DNA of 64,000 nucleotides from an archaeon (GTDB lineage Archaea; Nanobdellota; Nanobdellia; Pacearchaeales; GW2011-AR1). The stretch lies in NCBI GenBank assembly GCA_018657525.1, contig JABHWZ010000002.1:84590-148589 (forward strand), given 5' to 3'. Position 1 is the stretch's first letter; every line of letters starts with the position of its first letter. Shown piece by piece: positions 1 to 49,531 of the stretch. Below the pieces are notes generated by a model. The model worked only from the letters and a program-made list of their open reading frames with translations, was not told where the DNA came from and made no database searches. A program made the translations under genes and the position numbers.

Positions 1-293
1 ATAAAGAACAAGGGACCAAAAAAGTCTCAAAAGTTTTTTTGGGTGCTGACGCCATTCTTAAAAAAGGAATAATAAATAAGATTGGAAGTGAAACAATCGC
101 TAGAATTGCTAAACAAGAAAAAATCCCCCTTTACATAATTGCTGATTCTTGGAAAAAATCCCCTAAACAAGTTAAACTGGAGCAAAGATCTTTTAAGGAA
201 ATATGGAAAAAATCCCCTCGAGAAATAAAAATAAAAAACCCAGCTTTTGAGCTTGTTCCAAAAAAACTAATCACTAAAATAATTACAGAATGA
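1..293 (+). CDS. eIF-2B alpha/beta/delta family protein (ribose-1,5-bisphosphate isomerase-like), C-terminal fragment; 5' end lies off the window
   Basis: Frame 3 is open from base 3. ...KVFLGADAILKKGIINKIGSETIARIAKQEKIPLYIIADSWK resembles the conserved C-terminal core of the eIF-2B/MtnA/e2b2 family. Confidence 0.6.
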   Translation, partial: KEQGTKKVSKVFLGADAILKKGIINKIGSETIARIAKQEKIPLYIIADSWKKSPKQVKLEQRSFKEIWKKSPREIKIKNPAFELVPKKLITKIITE

Positions 294-2728: not shown

Positions 2729-3325
2729 TTATCTTAATGGTTTAGCAAGTCTTAACCCAATATGGCACCCACCATATGAACATAACTCCAAATCAATTTT
2801 TCTATTATTGTGTGATTGGAAAACTGCCACACTTCCATCAGAGGGGGCATGATATCTCAGATTCCCCTTTCCAATATTTTCTCTGGGTAGTCCTTGACTT
2901 GTCGGATTACTTGTCCACTCTTCCAAGTTAATCCCTTCAAATCTGTGCTCTCTTAACCCATCAATAATTTTTTCTTTTGGACATGTGCCATCAGGGAATT
3001 TCTGATTATCTGTATACATATATAATCCATTAGAAGCTCGCTCAAATCTAGCATCAATTGCTTCAAAGTGATAAGCTTTTGGTTTTAAAATTTTCCCATA
3101 AATTCCCTCATTTTCTGAATCTTCTGATGTTTTTAAAAAATCTAAAAATTTTGCAAATTCATAAAGAGTCAGCATCCGCCCTTCTTCTGGATGAAAAAGA
3201 GTTTCCCATTGACACCCCCACCAATTTTTATCTTCTCCCCCCAAGCTTAATTCTTTTGCGATAGCTAATCCTAATTGCGGAACTTCAATGTACGGTTCTG
3301 AAATAACTTCTACTTTTGGCTTCAT
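2729..3325 (-). CDS. hypothetical protein (198 aa)
   Basis: Long ORF with an ATG start. There is only a weak resemblance of the C-terminus (GGCHIGLRLAKPL) to FGE/SUMF1-like folds, which is not enough to call. Confidence 0.5.
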   Translation of the reverse strand: MKPKVEVISEPYIEVPQLGLAIAKELSLGGEDKNWWGCQWETLFHPEEGRMLTLYEFAKFLDFLKTSEDSENEGIYGKILKPKAYHFEAIDARFERASNGLYMYTDNQKFPDGTCPKEKIIDGLREHRFEGINLEEWTSNPTSQGLPRENIGKGNLRYHAPSDGSVAVFQSHNNRKIDLELCSYGGCHIGLRLAKPLR

Positions 3326-14860: not shown

Positions 14861-15262
14861 TTAATAAACCACTGAAGCGATTTTTGCAACTTGCGGCCAT
14901 CGCTCTAGAACCTCCCTTGCAATTGGTCCTTTAATCTGAGTTCCTTTTGGATTGCCTTTTTCATCTTTCAAAATAGCAACTGCATTATCTTCAAATGCCA
15001 CTCGCTCTCCGCTGTTTCTTCTCCATGATTTTTTCTGTCGAATTATTACTGCGTCAAAAACTTTCCCTTTCATGTCAGGCACGCCCTTCCGGATTGAAAC
15101 CTTTACCCAATCTGCAATTTTAGCACTTACCTGTTTAGATTTTTTAGCTTTAGCCTTTTTAACTGAAACAATTTTAACCATCTTCGCCCCACTATTATCT
15201 GCCGCGGGCATAATTGCACCGAGGTTAAAAGCTGAAGTTGTTCGCGCGCTTATTGCTTTCAT
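14861..15262 (-). CDS. rpl14: 50S ribosomal protein uL14
   Basis: ADNSGAKMVKIVSV...VFDAVIIRQKK..RR..G..V.FEDNA is the uL14 pattern. Confidence 0.95.
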   Translation of the reverse strand: MKAISARTTSAFNLGAIMPAADNSGAKMVKIVSVKKAKAKKSKQVSAKIADWVKVSIRKGVPDMKGKVFDAVIIRQKKSWRRNSGERVAFEDNAVAILKDEKGNPKGTQIKGPIAREVLERWPQVAKIASVVY

Positions 15263-15537
15263 TTTACATCCTCCCCTAATAATCCCTCAACTCTTAAATG
15301 ATTCCATGCTCTACTTCTTCTAATTTCTGCACTTTCACATCCTCCAATGCACCCACATCCTATTTGATATTCTCTAATGGTCACTTTTTCTCCATCCGAG
15401 TAAGCAAATATATTTGTTCCACATTGAGGATTTTGGCATCCAAATAAAACTCCTTTTTGCCCACTCACTAAAATATTCTGTGGGACATATGGATTAGATT
15501 CAAACCTGTGAATATCTTGAGGCCTTATTGCTTTCAT
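15259..15537 (-). CDS. hypothetical Cys-rich protein (92 aa) intercalated between rps17 and rpl14
   Basis: ATGA overlaps at both ends. Its first 14 nt are identical to the rpl14 start (MKAI). CQNPQCG...CGCIGGC is a possible metal site. The SD GGGGAGGA for rpl14 sits in its last codons. Confidence 0.65.
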   Translation of the reverse strand: MKAIRPQDIHRFESNPYVPQNILVSGQKGVLFGCQNPQCGTNIFAYSDGEKVTIREYQIGCGCIGGCESAEIRRSRAWNHLRVEGLLGEDVK

Positions 15538-15971
15538 TTTTTCTCTTCTCCAGATTTATCTTCTTTATTCAGTGTTTCACGATGCTCATGTGAAATGGAT
15601 TTAATAAACACAAAATGGATAATCTTACTCAAAGGTCGGCACTCTTGAATCTGAACTAAGTCCCCAATATTTACTGACGCTTCTAAGCATATTGGCAATC
15701 TAGCATGAAGTTTGGTTCTTGATTTAGTATATCTTTCATATTTTCTTACGTAAACTGTTCTTTCAAGTTCAATTACAATTCTTTTTTTAAATTTCTTGGT
15801 AACTGTTCCTTCAAAGATTCGCCCATGAGTTTTTAATTTTCCATGAATATTACAATCTATATCTTTGCATTCTTTCAGAGTCTCTGCTACTTTTGCTCCC
15901 TTCCGTGCTTCGCGATGCCTATGCGCAATGGCGCTTTCTGTTTTTTTCTTTGTCATTTTCTTTTCTGTCAT
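15534..15971 (-). CDS. rps17: 30S ribosomal protein uS17 with terminal extensions
   Basis: GRIFEGTVTKKFKKRIVIELERTVYVRKYERY...IGDLVQIQECRPLSK is uS17. The ATG at 15971 has AGGTGA 13 nt upstream; the alternative ATG at 16040 would overlap sui1 by 11 nt. Confidence 0.85.
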   Translation of the reverse strand: MTEKKMTKKKTESAIAHRHREARKGAKVAETLKECKDIDCNIHGKLKTHGRIFEGTVTKKFKKRIVIELERTVYVRKYERYTKSRTKLHARLPICLEASVNIGDLVQIQECRPLSKIIHFVFIKSISHEHRETLNKEDKSGEEKK

Positions 15972-16029
15972 TTTTGTGTATGTCACCTTTTTTTCCGGGC
16001 CACCTCGAAGAGGTTCTCGTGACCTTTGG

Positions 16030-16332
16030 TTATTCTTCATCTACGGAATCTTCATCAAATCCCATCTTTCCTAAAAGAGGTTTTATTCTCTTTCGATGAT
16101 CTCCTTGGAGTTCAATTCTGCCATCTTTGTAAGTCCCTCCACAAGCTAACTCATTTTTCAGAGCCTTTGCGGTTTTCTTTACATCGACGCTGTTGTCGAA
16201 CCCACTAACCACAGTAACAATCTTTCCGTACCTTTTCTTGTCGGTTGTTACCTTTATTCTTTGTGAACTTTTTACTATCTGCTCACACACACATGCTTGC
16301 TCAGGCAAGCCACATTTTGGACATATTTCCAT
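16030..16332 (-). CDS. sui1: translation initiation factor aIF1 / SUI1
   Basis: CPKCGLPEQACVCE zinc knuckle plus the SUI1 core (KRYGKIVTVVSGF...LKNELACGGTYKDGRIELQGDHR). Confidence 0.9.
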   Translation of the reverse strand: MEICPKCGLPEQACVCEQIVKSSQRIKVTTDKKRYGKIVTVVSGFDNSVDVKKTAKALKNELACGGTYKDGRIELQGDHRKRIKPLLGKMGFDEDSVDEE

Positions 16333-34916: not shown

Positions 34917-35222
34917 TTATCCAAATAGAGCACCTAGCCCTTCTGCTGCAGCTTCTTTCTTTTCTTCTTTTGGCTTCTCAGCTTTTGCTTCTCCACCTTC
35001 AGCTCCACCCGCAGGTGCGCTTCCAGCAGCAGGAGCACTAGCAACTAAACTAGCACTTGCTAATTCAGCTTCGATATCCACGTCCTTCAAACTAGCAACA
35101 AGAGACTTGATTTTACTCTCGTCCACGTCGATGCCAGCGGCTGCAACAACACTTTTGATTCCTTCTTCATTAACTTCCTTTCCTGCCTTATGCAGTAAAA
35201 GTGCTGCGTATACGTTTTCCAT
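34917..35222 (-). CDS. rpl12: 50S ribosomal stalk protein P1 (archaeal L12)
   Basis: MENVYAALLLHKAGKEVNEEGIK..., an Ala/Gly hinge, and the C-terminal EKKEAAAEGLGALFG. Confidence 0.9.
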   Translation of the reverse strand: MENVYAALLLHKAGKEVNEEGIKSVVAAAGIDVDESKIKSLVASLKDVDIEAELASASLVASAPAAGSAPAGGAEGGEAKAEKPKEEKKEAAAEGLGALFG

Positions 35223-35237
35223 TTTATTGTTTTCCTC
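35219..35237. repeat. 19-nt perfect direct repeat (CCATTTTATTGTTTTCCTC on the plus strand) spanning the stop/start junction, copy 1
   Basis: Identical to 35430-35448. On the coding strand it reads GAGGAAAACAATAAAATGG, i.e. -GKQ stop, A, ATG G. Confidence 0.9.
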
Positions 35238-35433
35238 TCCCAGAATTTAGTTCTGTTTGAGTTGAATATCTATTACAAATTTGATAATCATTTGGACAAC
35301 TCATTGCCCAGAATCGATCTATTTCACTTGCGCAGGGACTACCATCATATAAAAACGGACACATCTTTCCTTCTTCTTTCAAATTTTCAAGTCTTTGAGT
35401 AATTTCTTCTGACATTATTAAATTTTCTGCCAT
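35224..35433 (-). CDS. hypothetical Cys-rich protein (69 aa) intercalated upstream of rpl12
   Basis: There are 1-nt gaps on both sides when started at the ATG at 35433. Contains a CPF...C...C...C pattern and is flanked by the 19-nt perfect repeat. Confidence 0.6.
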   Translation of the reverse strand: MAENLIMSEEITQRLENLKEEGKMCPFLYDGSPCASEIDRFWAMSCPNDYQICNRYSTQTELNSGRGKQ

Positions 35434-35448
35434 TTTATTGTTTTCCTC
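35430..35448. repeat. 19-nt perfect direct repeat, copy 2
   Basis: See 35219-35237. Confidence 0.9.
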
Positions 35449-35764
35449 CATTTAAATTTGGAGTTTGAACTTGGTAAGCTCTTACCCAAAATTTATTTGA
35501 AAAGTCAACTTCATCCATTCCTTCTGAAATAAGTACTCCTGCTAATAAACCTTCTACAATTCCTTGTCCGTCCGGAGCACATCTTCTCCCTATTTTATTC
35601 CAAGAATTATCTGGATCTCTCCTAACATCACGAAACCGGATGTTTTTACAACCCTGTGAATGATATACCTCTATTTTTACCATTAGAGTCTCTCCAGTAG
35701 ATGGTGCAGGATATTGATAAATTTCATCCAACATCCCTTGTGGGATAGAATCTCTTTCTGTCAT
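35435..35764 (-). CDS. hypothetical protein (109 aa) intercalated downstream of rpl10
   Basis: The ATG at 35764 lies 1 nt after the rpl10 stop; the track start at 35857 overlaps rpl10. Confidence 0.6.
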   Translation of the reverse strand: MTERDSIPQGMLDEIYQYPAPSTGETLMVKIEVYHSQGCKNIRFRDVRRDPDNSWNKIGRRCAPDGQGIVEGLLAGVLISEGMDEVDFSNKFWVRAYQVQTPNLNGGKQ

Positions 35765-35765
35765 T

Positions 35766-36722
35766 TTATCCAAACAGTGCACCAAGACCTTCAGCTGCTG
35801 CTTCTTTCTTGGGCTCCTCCTTTTTTTCTGGTTTTGATTCTTCTGCTGGTGCTTCAACTGCCACTGGCTCTGGTTCCCCAGTCATTATTCTATGAACTTT
35901 AGTTCCATGTGCATTTGCTTTTGCTAACAAGTGAGAAATTGTATCTTTTGAGACATATCCCATAGAAACTGCAAAAGACAATGCCTTCCCATAATCTGCC
36001 TTCAAATTTTCAAGAGCCCCTTCAATATCAATTTTAATTTCTGCATAAAATTTATTCTCTTTAGTATCAAGCGCACTCAAAGGTAAGAACCCAATTGAAA
36101 ACGGTTTAATATCTAACTTACTCATCATCGCCGCTGCCCCCGAAGAAATCTCTTCGCCTTCTTTAACTAAAACTTTATCTTCCTTAATTGCAATTTTCCC
36201 ATCTTTAATCTGAATCTGAATTCCCAAAGCACCCAATTCTGAAATTGCTGGACCTGGAACTAAATCTGTTGGACCTGCTGAAACAATAATGTCCAACGGA
36301 GCAATTTGTCCAACTTTTGCTTTTGCAGGACTTTTGTTTCTTAATAAATCCAGAGATAAATCAAATGCATCACTTTCTGAAAATAATATTGCAACAGCTT
36401 CGCCAATCGAACCCTTTAATTTTTCTCCTTCTTTTGTTTCCGCTTCATCGATCGCTCTAAGAATTAAATTTTTCTTTGGAACTTTTACAACTGCTTGTCC
36501 TCGAAGTTTCTTAACAATTTCTTGAAATTGTGAGCCAGGCAAATTCTTAATTGAAGCAATTAAAACTGTTTTACTCCCACTAACTAAATCCTTTAACTCT
36601 GTAACAGTTTCCAATTTCCACTTTGGTGGATCAGTTCTTGCCGAGCGTTTTTGCGAACCTTTCGCGTCGCCCTTGATGTGAGCGGGAGCGCGAGTTTGAG
36701 CTGGTTTTTTTATTTCTGCCAT
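35766..36722 (-). CDS. rpl10: 50S ribosomal stalk protein uL10 (P0)
   Basis: PKWKLETVTELKDLV...VLIASIKNLPGSQFQEI and the C-terminal KKEAAAEGLGALFG. Confidence 0.9.
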   Translation of the reverse strand: MAEIKKPAQTRAPAHIKGDAKGSQKRSARTDPPKWKLETVTELKDLVSGSKTVLIASIKNLPGSQFQEIVKKLRGQAVVKVPKKNLILRAIDEAETKEGEKLKGSIGEAVAILFSESDAFDLSLDLLRNKSPAKAKVGQIAPLDIIVSAGPTDLVPGPAISELGALGIQIQIKDGKIAIKEDKVLVKEGEEISSGAAAMMSKLDIKPFSIGFLPLSALDTKENKFYAEIKIDIEGALENLKADYGKALSFAVSMGYVSKDTISHLLAKANAHGTKVHRIMTGEPEPVAVEAPAEESKPEKKEEPKKEAAAEGLGALFG

Positions 36723-36723
36723 T

Positions 36724-36972
36724 TTATTCTATCACCTTCCTTTTTAATTTTCCGTTAATTATTTCATATGTTCTGGAAAATTCTTCCTCTGTCCCATAAT
36801 TAGTATAAACTCGACTTCCTTCCTCTCCCCAAATAAAAACATAGTTCTCTTCTATTGATCCAGATAAATTATGAACTATTTGTTTCGCCTCTCTTCCATT
36901 TAAAACTTCTAAAAGTCCTTTTCGTCCATCATCAACTTCTCTTCCAATCCATTGTTTCCAATTATTTTCCAT
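36724..36972 (-). CDS. hypothetical protein (82 aa) intercalated between rpl1 and rpl10
   Basis: There are 1-nt gaps on both sides. Its last codons encode GGAAGGTGAT, the SD for rpl10. Confidence 0.6.
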   Translation of the reverse strand: MENNWKQWIGREVDDGRKGLLEVLNGREAKQIVHNLSGSIEENYVFIWGEEGSRVYTNYGTEEEFSRTYEIINGKLKRKVIE

Positions 36973-36973
36973 T

Positions 36974-37606
36974 TTATCTTATCGAAATTTTCTGCGGTTT
37001 AGTCATTGTGAATTTAACTTCAACATTCTTTACATTTTCTTTTTCTCGCGGTAAATGTTTCAGAACAGTTTTGTAAATTGTATTAATATTCTCAATTATG
37101 TCTTCATCTTTCATACTCTGTTTCCCAATCGCAAGTTTAATACTAGCCTCTTTAACTTTAATTTTTATACTATTACTAATTTTTGCTTTCACTTCATTTA
37201 TTGCTTTATCATCTGCATTTAGAATTATTCCTAACTGGGGAGAAGGCATTTTTCCTGCTGGTCCTAACGCTCTACCAAAGGTTGTTGCAATTTTTGGCAT
37301 TAAACTTCCTTGCGCAAGAAAAAAATCATAACTCTCTACTAATTTTTTTAATTTCTTCTTATCATTATATTTCTTAAATTGCTCTGGAGTAATCGTATCC
37401 ACATTTTTATTGTCTGATTCTAAGAAACCTGCAATTTTTTTCTCTTTTACTTGATGCGGAACATTCACAATAACATTAAGTGTTGTTTTTTTCAAATCAA
37501 CTTTTTGCAAATTTATAATTAAATCAACTGTTTGGTCAAACTTCCGTTCCTTCCCTTTACGTAACTCTTCCAGAGCTTTTTTTAAATCGGTTTTCAAATC
37601 TGCCAT
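36974..37606 (-). CDS. rpl1: 50S ribosomal protein uL1
   Basis: RKFDQTVDLIINLQKVDLKK...LGPAGKMPSPQLG is uL1. Confidence 0.9.
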   Translation of the reverse strand: MADLKTDLKKALEELRKGKERKFDQTVDLIINLQKVDLKKTTLNVIVNVPHQVKEKKIAGFLESDNKNVDTITPEQFKKYNDKKKLKKLVESYDFFLAQGSLMPKIATTFGRALGPAGKMPSPQLGIILNADDKAINEVKAKISNSIKIKVKEASIKLAIGKQSMKDEDIIENINTIYKTVLKHLPREKENVKNVEVKFTMTKPQKISIR

Positions 37607-47172: not shown

Positions 47173-47346
47173 ATGGTAACTCAAAAACTAAAATCATTTT
47201 TCGTTCAATGCAAACGAGTTTGGACTGCATTAAAAAAACCATCCAAAAAAGAATTTAATCAAACCGCAAAAGTTGCAGCAATCGGAATTTTAATCTTGGG
47301 CGCTTTAGGGTTTTTAATCTCAATTGCAATGAAAATTTTTGTATAA
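47173..47346 (+). CDS. secE: preprotein translocase subunit SecE / Sec61gamma (57 aa, MVTQKLKSFFVQCKRVWTALKKPSKKEFNQTAKVAAIGILILGALGFLISIAMKIFV)
   Basis: Hand-translated and not in the track. An amphipathic basic N-terminus plus a single C-terminal TM helix. The position upstream of spt5-rpl11 is the conserved archaeal context. Confidence 0.7.
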   Translation: MVTQKLKSFFVQCKRVWTALKKPSKKEFNQTAKVAAIGILILGALGFLISIAMKIFV

Positions 47347-47362: not shown

Positions 47363-47869
47363 ATGACCATTAATCATTTTATGACGTTGATAAAAGGTTA
47401 TTTAAAATTTCTAAAATATTTTGTTCCAATAGTTATCGGATTGTTTTTGATATTTATTCTTTTTGTTTCATTTATTGCTAAGCAATTTCCCGATGGATTC
47501 GCGATGATGGGTTTATTATTATTAATTGGAGGATTAGGGGTAATTTTATTTCTTGTGGGGGTAATTTTAGCTTTAATTGATTATTTTTTTGGAAAAGGCG
47601 AAGAGGAAATCAAAACAATTGAAAGTAATCCTCAAAATAAACCAAAAACAATTCTCTCTGTTCCAAATGAATCAAAAAAATTTCCTCTTCCCCTTCTGGG
47701 AGGTTTAATAGGAATTTTATTTGGTCTTTTAACAAGTTTAACTTATCTTGGAAAGGATTACGCAGATTTTGGATATATTGCTTTAAATGTTGGGGCAGCA
47801 ACTTTTTTTGCCTATCTCCCTTTAGGAGTTTTTATTGGATGGCTAATTGCTAAATTCAAAAAAGATTAA
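47363..47869 (+). CDS. hypothetical membrane protein (168 aa, about 4 TM) inserted between secE and spt5
   Basis: Hydrophobic helices; starts 16 nt after the secE stop. Confidence 0.55.
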   Translation: MTINHFMTLIKGYLKFLKYFVPIVIGLFLIFILFVSFIAKQFPDGFAMMGLLLLIGGLGVILFLVGVILALIDYFFGKGEEEIKTIESNPQNKPKTILSVPNESKKFPLPLLGGLIGILFGLLTSLTYLGKDYADFGYIALNVGAATFFAYLPLGVFIGWLIAKFKKD

Positions 47870-47946: not shown

Positions 47947-48399
47947 ATGATTTTCATTATAAAAGTAACAACAAACAAAGAAGAACGATCCGTCGACATG
48001 ATTGCTGAGAAAGCTCAGAAAAAAAATCTAAATGTTTTTTCAGTTTCAAGACCTTTCGGACTTCGAGGATACATCTTACTAGAAGCTGAGGACAGAGATT
48101 CTGCAGAAGAATCAGTTTTTAATTTACCTTATGTAAAGGGAATAATTGGGAAAACAATTCCTTATGAAGAAATTCAAAACATGGTTGAACCATCAGCGAC
48201 GACAATTTCAATTCAAGAAGGTGACATCGTTGAAATTATTGGAGCAACTCTAAAAGGCGAAAAAGCCAAAGTTACAAGAATCGACAAACAAAAAGAAGAA
48301 GTCGTTGTAAATTTATTAGGAGCAGTAGTTCCATTACCAGTCTCAATTAAATTGGATAGCGTAAAGGTTATAAGGCGTGAATCTGAGGAAGAAGAGTAA
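47947..48399 (+). CDS. spt5: transcription elongation factor Spt5 (archaeal NusG)
   Basis: NGN domain (IFIIKVTTNKEERSV...GYILLEAEDRD) plus a KOW motif (EGDIVEIIGATLKGEKAKVTRID). ATG at 47947. Confidence 0.85.
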   Translation: MIFIIKVTTNKEERSVDMIAEKAQKKNLNVFSVSRPFGLRGYILLEAEDRDSAEESVFNLPYVKGIIGKTIPYEEIQNMVEPSATTISIQEGDIVEIIGATLKGEKAKVTRIDKQKEEVVVNLLGAVVPLPVSIKLDSVKVIRRESEEEE

Positions 48400-48833
48400 T
48401 GGAAATAAAAGATTTATTAGAATTAGGGAGGGGAAAAATTAGAGACTTTAAAAGCAAAGTTATGCCTAAAGGATATTTTGAAGAATCTGTTAGGGTTTGT
48501 TTAAATTTAAAAGGAAAAGACCCCGCTTCAGATAAATTTGCAGAAGCATTCGAAGAATTTTGGTTATTCAATATTAGACAAGCTACCTATCAAGAAACGC
48601 TTCATGATAGAATGAAAGCAATTGTTGAATCTAGTAGGAATGTCGAGGGGGGGAAAGATCTCGTTGAGTATCTTGGACGAACCTCTTTAGAGTTTAGAGC
48701 AAGGTCAGACGCAATCACCCAAGTAAGAACTAATTATAGACTTTGGAGAGAAGGTCAACAAGATTATTCTGTTTTTGAAGATTCTTTAAGAGGAGCATTA
48801 ACTTTAAATAAACAAATCGGAGTAACTCAATAA
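48399..48833 (+). CDS. hypothetical protein (144 aa) intercalated between spt5 and rpl11
   Basis: TAATG overlaps at both ends. Its first 4 codons (MEIK) and 14 nt are identical to the rpl11 start. Confidence 0.65.
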   Translation: MEIKDLLELGRGKIRDFKSKVMPKGYFEESVRVCLNLKGKDPASDKFAEAFEEFWLFNIRQATYQETLHDRMKAIVESSRNVEGGKDLVEYLGRTSLEFRARSDAITQVRTNYRLWREGQQDYSVFEDSLRGALTLNKQIGVTQ

Positions 48834-49531
48834 TGGAAATAAAATTATTAGTTGAAGGTGGAGCAATGAAACCCGGACCAGCAATCAGTCAACAGCTTGG
48901 GCCAGCCGGAATCAATATGGGCAAAGTCATTTCTGATGTTAACGACGCTACTTCAGGTTTCAAAGGATTAAAAGTTCCAGTAACTTTAGAAGTTGATACA
49001 AAATTAAAAACATTTGAAATTAAAGTATTCTCCCCACCAGTTTCAGAATTATTAAAAAAACAATTAGGATTAGAAAAAGGCGCCGGAGAACAGAAAAAAA
49101 TTCAGGCAGGAAACGCCTCTATTGAAGATATAATTTCTGTTGCAAAAACAAAATTACCCAATTTATTATGTAAGGACTTGAAAGCTGCAGTTAAAACAAT
49201 TGCAGGAACTTGCGTTAGTTTAGGATTATTAATTGAAAATCAACCAGCTGTTAAAATTGCAAGCGAAGTAGAGGCAGGAAAATATGATAATGAAATTCAA
49301 GAACAAAAAACAGAAACAGATGCAGAAAAAAGAAAACAATTAGATTCATACTTTAAGGATTTACATTCAGCTCAAGAAAAGCAGAAGAAAGAAGAAGAAG
49401 AAGCTGCTGCTGAAGCTGAAAAGGAAGCAGCTGCTGCCGCTGAACCAAAAGAAGGAGAAGCAGCTCCAACAGCACCAACAGCAGAAGGCGAGGCTCCAGC
49501 ACCACCCGCAGCAACAGAGGAAAAGAAATAA
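48833..49531 (+). CDS. rpl11: 50S ribosomal protein uL11 with a Glu/Ala/Pro-rich C-terminal tail of about 70 aa
   Basis: The core KLLVEGGAMKPGPAISQQLGPAGINMGKV... is uL11. The tail is KKEEEEAAAEAEKEAAAAAEPKEGEAAPTAPTAEGEAPAPPAATEEKK. Confidence 0.9.
   Translation: MEIKLLVEGGAMKPGPAISQQLGPAGINMGKVISDVNDATSGFKGLKVPVTLEVDTKLKTFEIKVFSPPVSELLKKQLGLEKGAGEQKKIQAGNASIEDIISVAKTKLPNLLCKDLKAAVKTIAGTCVSLGLLIENQPAVKIASEVEAGKYDNEIQEQKTETDAEKRKQLDSYFKDLHSAQEKQKKEEEEAAAEAEKEAAAAAEPKEGEAAPTAPTAEGEAPAPPAATEEKK

Follow-up and report, generated by a model that had tools for sequence, protein, structure and literature searches.

In a 64-kb stretch of archaeal DNA (about 33% G+C; GenBank contig JABHWZ010000002.1 from a member of the Pacearchaeales; hereafter the window), the genes for the transcription elongation factor Spt5 (spt5, 47947-48399, plus strand) and ribosomal protein uL11 (rpl11, 48833-49531, plus strand; its product is called L11 below) are separated by an open reading frame (ORF) of 144 amino acids (aa). 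This frame, ORF144 (48399-48833, plus strand), belongs to a rare family located between these two genes. The junction at which ORF144 meets its neighbors is present twice, once on either side, and among the genomes that carry the family the two copies co-vary within genomes. We explain this, with confidence slightly better than even, by a duplicated coupling module that flanks ORF144, co-varies within each genome and would act as an expression relay.

The two copies, J1 at the spt5/ORF144 junction and J2 at the ORF144/rpl11 junction, both read TAATGGAAATAAAA. J1 (48397-48410, plus strand) comprises the spt5 stop, the ORF144 ATG and codons 2-4 (E-I-K), and J2 (48831-48844, plus strand) the ORF144 stop, the rpl11 ATG and codons 2-4 (E-I-K). 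These coordinates and letters are exactly those given by the first-pass annotation, as is the continuation past the 14-mer, which is GAT TTATTAG at J1 and TTATTAG at J2. The spt5 stop TAA (48397-48399) has one base in common with the ORF144 ATG, and at both junctions the last A of the TAA stop is the first base of the next ATG (1-nt overlap). With both strands searched, these are the only two exact copies of TAATGGAAATAAAA in the window. A repeat search of the locus recovered the pair as repeat D3 (26 nt, 81% ungapped identity, spacing 434) and found no inverted repeats at the ends of ORF144. A 12-nt segment in the 3' region of spt5 (TAGTTCCATTAC, 48326-48337) is complementary to both junction copies (48396-48407 and 48831-48841). 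An RNA hairpin pairing 48326-48337 with J1 was considered and rejected, as the fold of 48315-48425 was no better than that of shuffled sequence (z = -1.19), and the complementarity is probably due to chance.

The similarity of the two starts exceeds chance. Calling ATG-initiated ORFs in the window yielded 106 frames and 5565 start pairs, of which only four agree from the ATG onward over at least 12 nt. Adjacent genes make up two of the four: ORF144/rpl11 and a pair on the minus strand with starts at 15537 and 15262. When start contexts (-9 to +27) were scanned by gapped local alignment, these two adjacent pairs scored 17 and 16, the latter being ORF144/rpl11, while a score of 16 was reached by one of 5910 non-adjacent start pairs. 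For the 85 same-strand adjacent pairs this corresponds to 0.014 expected versus 2 observed at that score (P ≈ 1e-4). A common MEIK start bias, which the first-pass annotation had named as one of two observations that would undo its claim, was not seen: ORF144 and rpl11 are the only two of the 106 ORFs with this start. Even if I3-K4 is granted as fixed in the family, the probability of the same GAA/ATA/AAA codons together with the same -1 overlap is only about 0.0016.

These numbers bear on the simplest rival explanation, in which nothing was copied and the likeness arises by coincidence under shared constraint, an A-rich, unstructured start context being favored and the stop overlap forcing codons. 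ME starts are indeed common in the window (18-19 of 106 ORFs), GAA, AAA and TTA are major codons, and ribosomal-protein genes that are not neighbors can have as many as 18 nt in common at their starts (e.g., ATAGAATAAAATGGCAGA). An 11-nt overlap, the geometry most frequent in relatives, additionally fixes NTT AAN. Coincidence also accounts for the TTATTAG part of the match. Because TTA makes up 50% of the Leu codons in the window and Leu-Leu is conserved separately in the ORF144 and L11 families, this extension adds little. The first-pass annotation had included GAT and TTATTAG in the copy; this did not hold up, since most family members conserve D5-L6-L7, and the Leu-Leu codons after MxIK show no co-variation with rpl11 across the remaining ORF-bearing genomes. 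Coincidence explains neither the two extreme outliers among 85 adjacent pairs nor the conditional probability just given, and the comparison of genomes described below weighs further against it.

To place the junction in context, loci fetched by Spt5 scans (80 from genomes and 80 from metagenomes) were compared; they derive from metagenome-assembled genomes of Pacearchaeota, Woesearchaeota and Nanoarchaeota with 76-91% Spt5 identity. In all 168 analyzable related loci rpl11 follows spt5. The L11 N-terminus M-x-[IV]-K-[LI]-L-x-[ED]-G-G (MxIKLLxxGG) is conserved in about 165 related loci, and MEIKLLVEGG is therefore the native L11 N-terminus. The suggestion that the ORF start copies the rpl11 start is thereby borne out. 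The two genes overlap or are spaced by 1 nt in about half of the 168 loci; of the 91 junctions with tight spacing, these are the majority. An 11-nt overlap, ATGCARATTAA, is found most often (55 loci), ahead of a 1-nt spacer (17) and a 4-nt overlap (12). With the 11-nt overlap, Spt5 ends in N-A-N or N-A-D on bases that also encode L11 M-Q-I-K. The 1-nt TAATG overlap of the window occurs at none of the other spt5/rpl11 junctions. The nearest relatives, L092 (Spt5 91% identical), L006 and L002, lack the ORF and have a single junction, and their L11 also starts with MEIK. Since spt5 and rpl11 overlap directly in many relatives, ORF144 occupies a former junction.

Homologs of ORF144 are rare. A k-mer-indexed protein search returned only its own cluster, an exhaustive phmmer search found six homologs (P0002-P0007; 146-172 aa; E-values 6.5e-32 to 1e-4), and a family hidden Markov model (HMM) added a member in L134 (E = 6e-19). 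The family thus comprises eight distinct genomes, window included, and every member lies between spt5 and rpl11 and tightly abuts both. M1, D16, S44, F47, W55, R110 and Y113 are invariant, and the N-terminal consensus is M-x-I-K-D-L-L-K-[I/L]-G-x-A-K-I-x-D. In global alignments, members are pairwise 20-48% identical, compared with 70-88% for host Spt5, so the family is old or fast-evolving. As a member of such a diverged family, always in the same slot and with a conserved N-terminus, ORF144 is not a recent insertion private to this genome. The member in L084 carries, just past its start (3013-3030), a perfect 9-nt tandem duplication (two copies of TTAATCCGT, encoding LIR-LIR), a sign of slippage in this region.

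J1 and J2 co-vary. In five of the eight genomes, the two junctions are identical: TAATGGAAATAAAA in the window, ACAAAATGCAAATTAAAT in L083, AATAAAATGCAAA in L086, AAAATGCAAATTA in L091 and ATGCAAATTAAA in L134, with ATGCAAATTA at J1 and J2 alike in L091 and L134. L001, which is 99% identical, has the same junctions as the window. In L084, J1 reads AGAAGATGCCGGTTAA and J2 AGAAGATGCGGGTTAA (MPVN versus MRVK), and Spt5 and the ORF both end in EDAG. The L11 start MRVK is unique among the loci, so that a rare variant (ATGCCGGTTAA/ATGCGGGTTAA) is paired within one genome. The match is weaker in L082 (J1 GAAAAATGAAATTAA, J2 GAAAATGGAAATTAA; MKLRD versus MEIK) and in L089 (MMIKD versus MQIK). In an exact permutation test with seven genomes, same-genome junctions were more similar than cross-genome junctions (P = 0.001 for -12 to +15; P = 0.002 for codons 2-4), and with eight genomes P was 0.0008. 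Overlap geometry is equal at J1 and J2 in seven of the eight genomes (P ≈ 0.012). The comparison of spt5-rpl11 junctions that the first-pass annotation had called for came out partly in favor of its claim. Its other expectation, that no relative would carry the ORF without the shared start, held only in part: the start differs in L082, the closest ORF-bearing relative, and in L089.

As a control, 40 unrelated short ORFs of the same slot showed no same-genome excess (P = 0.43), and genome composition hence does not explain the likeness of J1 and J2. The contrast between family and control, together with the pairing of rare variants within genomes (CCG/CGG GTT in L084, the -1 TAATG geometry in the window), leaves coincidence under shared constraint disfavored, and we consider it quite improbable. 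A single ancient duplication followed by independent drift would give equal same-genome and cross-genome similarity. The observed excess thus implies homogenization of the two copies, repeated duplication, or a genome-specific constraint hidden from the control.

A different origin of the shared start would be duplication of rpl11 itself, with ORF144 having diverged from a partial tandem copy of rpl11, or being an overprinted rpl11 frame, and the common start its last recognizable remnant. The sizes are alike (144-172 aa for the family, about 140-160 aa for the L11 core), and over about 12 residues MxIK-D-LL-x-x-G-x-A loosely parallels the L11 pattern MxIK-LL-x-x-G-G-A. The predicted fold speaks against this. 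AlphaFold, run on a shallow alignment, modeled ORF144 as five helices and helices only (pLDDT 80.5, pTM 0.70), and we accordingly expect an all-alpha protein, as predicted by the model; both Pfam L11 domains are found in the rpl11 product and neither in the ORF. No family member gives an L11 signal in Pfam or NCBIfam, and in 172 loci the family HMM matches neither rpl11 nor spt5 in any frame. Paralogy with uL11 or overprinting is largely refuted by the predicted fold and this six-frame search, and we regard it as highly improbable.

Further searches did not assign ORF144 to any known group. Pfam, NCBIfam, PHROG and PADLOC searches with ORF144 and its family returned nothing meaningful, and a Foldseek comparison of the model with PDB and BFVD gave no match at E ≤ 0.001, only generic helical bundles. 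Six-frame translations of the window and 172 loci contain one copy per locus and none elsewhere by the family HMM. No relatives came out of a scan of JGI metagenomes with patterns taken from the ORF, and the seven-sequence profile was too diverged to yield patterns. Neither the ORF144 family nor duplicated, co-varying junctions at operon insertions were found described in the literature. ORF144 is a genuine protein-coding, lineage-restricted gene. Its fixed place between an elongation factor and a ribosomal protein of the GTPase center makes it, speculatively, a candidate accessory factor.

The slot between spt5 and rpl11 is occupied in many relatives by other frames. A gap of at least 100 nt separates the two genes in 60 of the 168 loci. 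Each gap is taken up by a plus-strand ORF of 43-172 aa, or by two of them, in tight abutment, and BLAST sorts these frames into about 35 unrelated clusters. Open frames of this length are improbable by chance at 33% G+C. Most of the slot ORFs start with MN[KER]L, their ATG lying inside the last Spt5 codons (GAAAATGAATAA). All slot ORFs begin at most about 25 nt from the spt5 stop and end at most about 12 nt from the rpl11 start or from the next chained ORF, frequently in ...NAN or ...NAD, which results from the same 11-nt overlap geometry seen at direct junctions. Their tight abutment fits a relay of termination-reinitiation coupling. The slot behaves like a nursery of small ORFs or an insertion hotspot.

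Three observations concern individual slots. In L120, an unrelated 83-aa slot ORF (2443-2694; rpl11 from 2699) starts AAAATGCAAATTAAA (MQIKL...), 15 nt of which are identical to the rpl11 start of that genome; here the footprint recurs in another ORF family. In the window, the last ~35 nt before rpl11 (48795-48832; AAATAAACAAAT...TAACTCAATAA) resemble those of otherwise unrelated short ORFs in L050 and L042, as do the encoded C-termini: LNKQIGVTQ (window), LNKQICLTQ (L050) and LNQGISQ (L042). This likeness points to mosaic ORFs with a segment next to rpl11 in common. Finally, L086, L087 and L088 have a reverse-transcriptase gene (RVT_1) two genes upstream of spt5 (~1.7-2.2 kb), in a genome carrying family member P0005.

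In a weakly resolved neighbor-joining tree of Spt5 and L11 (310 aa), ORF-bearing genomes are scattered among ORF-less ones, and within the MEIK clade the window is closest to ORF-less L092, while L082 is closest to ORF-less L002 and L006. This scattered distribution calls for several precise losses or several gains, and the direct repeats around ORF144 would make precise loss easy.

Several gains are what one would expect from repeated independent insertion, the main rival to homogenization. A mobile or horizontally exchanged cassette would enter the slot again and again, each entry duplicating ~11-18 nt of target, as in a target-site duplication or when a circle integrates at a short att-like site, and the copies would be alike because they are young. 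Transposable elements generate target-site duplications, and integration duplicates att sites. As in these cases, a short direct repeat of host sequence flanks the insert here, and the empty sites in L092, L002 and L006 are single-copy. The patchy distribution among closest relatives, the scatter in the tree and the filling of the slot by dozens of unrelated clusters would all suit such a hotspot. The junction copies moreover match rare L11 variants of their hosts (GAA ATA for the window clade, CGG GTT for L084). Unlike a transposable element, though, ORF144 has no integrase, transposase or nuclease motif in or beside it and no fold match, terminal inverted repeats are lacking, the insert consists of a single small ORF, and there is one copy per locus with none elsewhere in the window or the fetched loci. 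In contrast to a typical target-site duplication, the repeat consists of functional sequence, namely a stop, a start and the initial codons; the family is old relative to its hosts, and its M-x-I-K-D N-terminus is conserved across lineages. The population itself shows no presence/absence polymorphism. An ORF-less variant, for which the first-pass annotation had proposed a search, was found on none of 24 contigs with identical Spt5, all of which have the same neighbors. On balance, we consider repeated insertion unlikely, if still the main alternative.

The explanation we prefer, the duplicated coupling module, can be laid out as follows. ORF144 sits where spt5 and rpl11 were ancestrally joined in a short overlap. 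The module consists of an SD-like (Shine-Dalgarno-like) GAGG or GGAG about 10 nt upstream, a stop that runs into the ATG, and three to four initial codons of rpl11. Its upstream copy supplies the ORF144 start, hence the rpl11-like MEIK, and its downstream copy keeps the start of rpl11 itself. Putative motifs of this kind are present at both junctions: GAGGA in the tail of spt5 (48385-48389, plus strand), of which GAGG (48385-48388) ends 10 nt before the ORF144 ATG, and GGAG in the tail of ORF144 (48819-48822, plus strand), which ends 10 nt before the rpl11 ATG, so that the spacing is equal at J1 and J2. Ribosomes that end spt5 would restart on ORF144, and those that end ORF144 would restart on rpl11, in a termination-reinitiation relay that lets rpl11 expression survive the insertion. 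Duplication of the module would then be the simplest way to express an insert while the essential gene behind it stays coupled.

Gene conversion over short tracts, or slipped pairing of the 14-18 nt direct repeats, could keep the copies alike. Through the same repeats the ORF could also be lost precisely, and such losses would account for its patchy distribution. We consider conversion or slippage the likeliest reason for the continued likeness, with re-insertion involving target-site-like duplication as the main rival. The pattern of within-genome copies being more alike than between-genome copies is that of concerted evolution by gene conversion. In contrast to classical conversion, the repeats here measure only about 14-18 nt, far less than the usual substrates, and are separated by 420-520 nt. 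For recombination in Sulfolobus, homology requirements are reported to be very short. Translational coupling, conversion as the homogenizing process and repeat-mediated loss are steps that we infer from the sequences compared here.

Several points weigh against this explanation. Conversion would have to act on repeats of no more than 14-18 nt, and no tract of conversion was seen directly. The family is known from eight genomes only, about five of which drive the signal, with the junctions of L082 and L089 clearly less similar. Part of the likeness is imposed by geometry, as the 11-nt overlap forces ATG NNN NTT AAN and thereby limits codon 3 to I/V/L/F and codon 4 to K/N. The host tree is poorly resolved, divergence of the ORF is only weakly correlated with that of the host (Mantel r = 0.29, P = 0.11), and the 24 contigs with identical Spt5 hold no ORF-less allele. 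Lastly, a TATA-box-like octamer, TTTAAATA (48803-48810, plus strand), lies in the 3' end of ORF144 and begins 30 nt before the rpl11 ATG, which suggests that rpl11 may be transcribed independently; this would weaken the case for coupling at J2.

The same octamer occurs 27-29 nt upstream of four other genes in the window, a spacing consistent with archaeal TATA boxes of leaderless or near-leaderless mRNAs. TTTAAATA is thus a candidate internal promoter, and rpl11 may also have a promoter of its own here. A similar box precedes rpl11 in only 5 of 51 gap loci of relatives, and an internal TATA box as a general feature of the locus was therefore rejected.

Apart from the interposed ORF144, the locus fits the archaeal secE-spt5-rpl11 cluster, with the NGN and KOW domains of Spt5 (TIGR00405, E = 2.3e-40; PF03439, PF00467) and the N- and C-terminal domains of uL11 (NF002232, E = 1.3e-51; PF03946, PF00298). 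The L11 domains end near residue 160 and are followed by a C-terminal extension of about 75 aa (49290-49531), which is acidic, Ala/Pro-rich and contains GAAGCTGCT-type repeats. Upstream of spt5 lie secE (47173-47346) and an unassigned ORF for a predicted membrane protein of 168 aa (47363-47869) that has no family match and recurs in near-identical contigs. Genes for L37ae, RpoP and prefoldin lie 3' of rpl11.

A second case in the window involves the other adjacent pair of the chance analysis and agrees with the first-pass annotation, which had noted the same footprint on the minus strand. ORF91 (15259-15537, minus strand), a Pfam-less, Cys-rich frame of 92 aa (CxxxxC...CxCxxxC), lies between the genes for S17 (15534-16040) and L14 (14861-15262), and its start, AAAATGAAAGCAATAAG, is identical to the L14 start over 17 nt (MKAIR versus MKAIS). 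Together with ORF144/rpl11, it forms the class of outliers scoring 17 and 16 among adjacent starts. No homologs of ORF91 were found past the identical 'hypothetical protein HN832_02175' (33 contigs). The S17 protein has 167-168 aa, its Pfam domain covering residues 79-145 only, after a basic N-terminal extension of about 75 aa. The L1-L10-L12 cluster (34917-37606, minus strand) holds three further Pfam-less small ORFs, one of 82 aa between L1 and L10 (36724-36972) and two, of 109 aa (35435-35764) and 75 aa (35224-35451), between L10 and L12, all on the minus strand. The 75-aa ORF starts with ATGGA(GGA)AAAC, compared with ATGGAAAAC for L12, and the context of a second ATG, AACAATAAAATGG, is common to L12. 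Across the flanks of 160 related loci, sharing between adjacent starts was weak under crude start calling and was driven by the same spt5-rpl11 slot.

Insertion of ORFan genes into pre-existing operons is known, and the mechanism of insertion 'remains unclear' (Price, Arkin & Alm 2006, PMC1480536). Like the cases described there, ORF144 is a lineage-restricted gene, without wider homologs, that follows a native gene within a conserved operon and presumably relies on native expression signals. Unlike them, for which no junction footprint was described, the insert occupies precisely the overlapping stop/start, with a co-varying copy of the junction on either side. Termination-reinitiation coupling at overlapping gene pairs has been demonstrated experimentally in archaea (Huber et al. 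2019, PMC6728339; also PMC10666635). The genes studied here resemble such coupled pairs in being co-directional, with overlaps of -1, -4 or longer (-11, -4 and +1 in relatives) and a putative SD-like motif in the upstream gene. The coupled pairs described so far are single junctions, whereas here a duplicated, putatively coupling module brackets an inserted gene, and the dominant geometry of the clade is the 11-nt overlap rather than ATGA or TGATG.

Taking these cases together, small-genome archaea of the DPANN group (Pacearchaeota- or Woesearchaeota-like) might recurrently gain small ORFs at overlapping junctions of essential operons by module duplication, followed by conversion and precise loss, with spt5|rpl11, S17|L14 and possibly L1|L10|L12 as examples. 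This generalization is tentative, and we think it rather doubtful as a whole. If true, operon junctions would be 'gene nurseries' with a readable footprint. How new genes enter tight, coupled essential operons without breaking them is an acknowledged gap, and this locus would offer an answer that can be read in the DNA, the doubled module giving both the newcomer and the essential downstream gene a working start. The co-variation suggests an ongoing process, be it conversion, re-insertion or repeat-mediated loss, and not a frozen accident, and the slot with its dozens of unrelated small ORFs may serve as a natural system for the study of gene birth and turnover.

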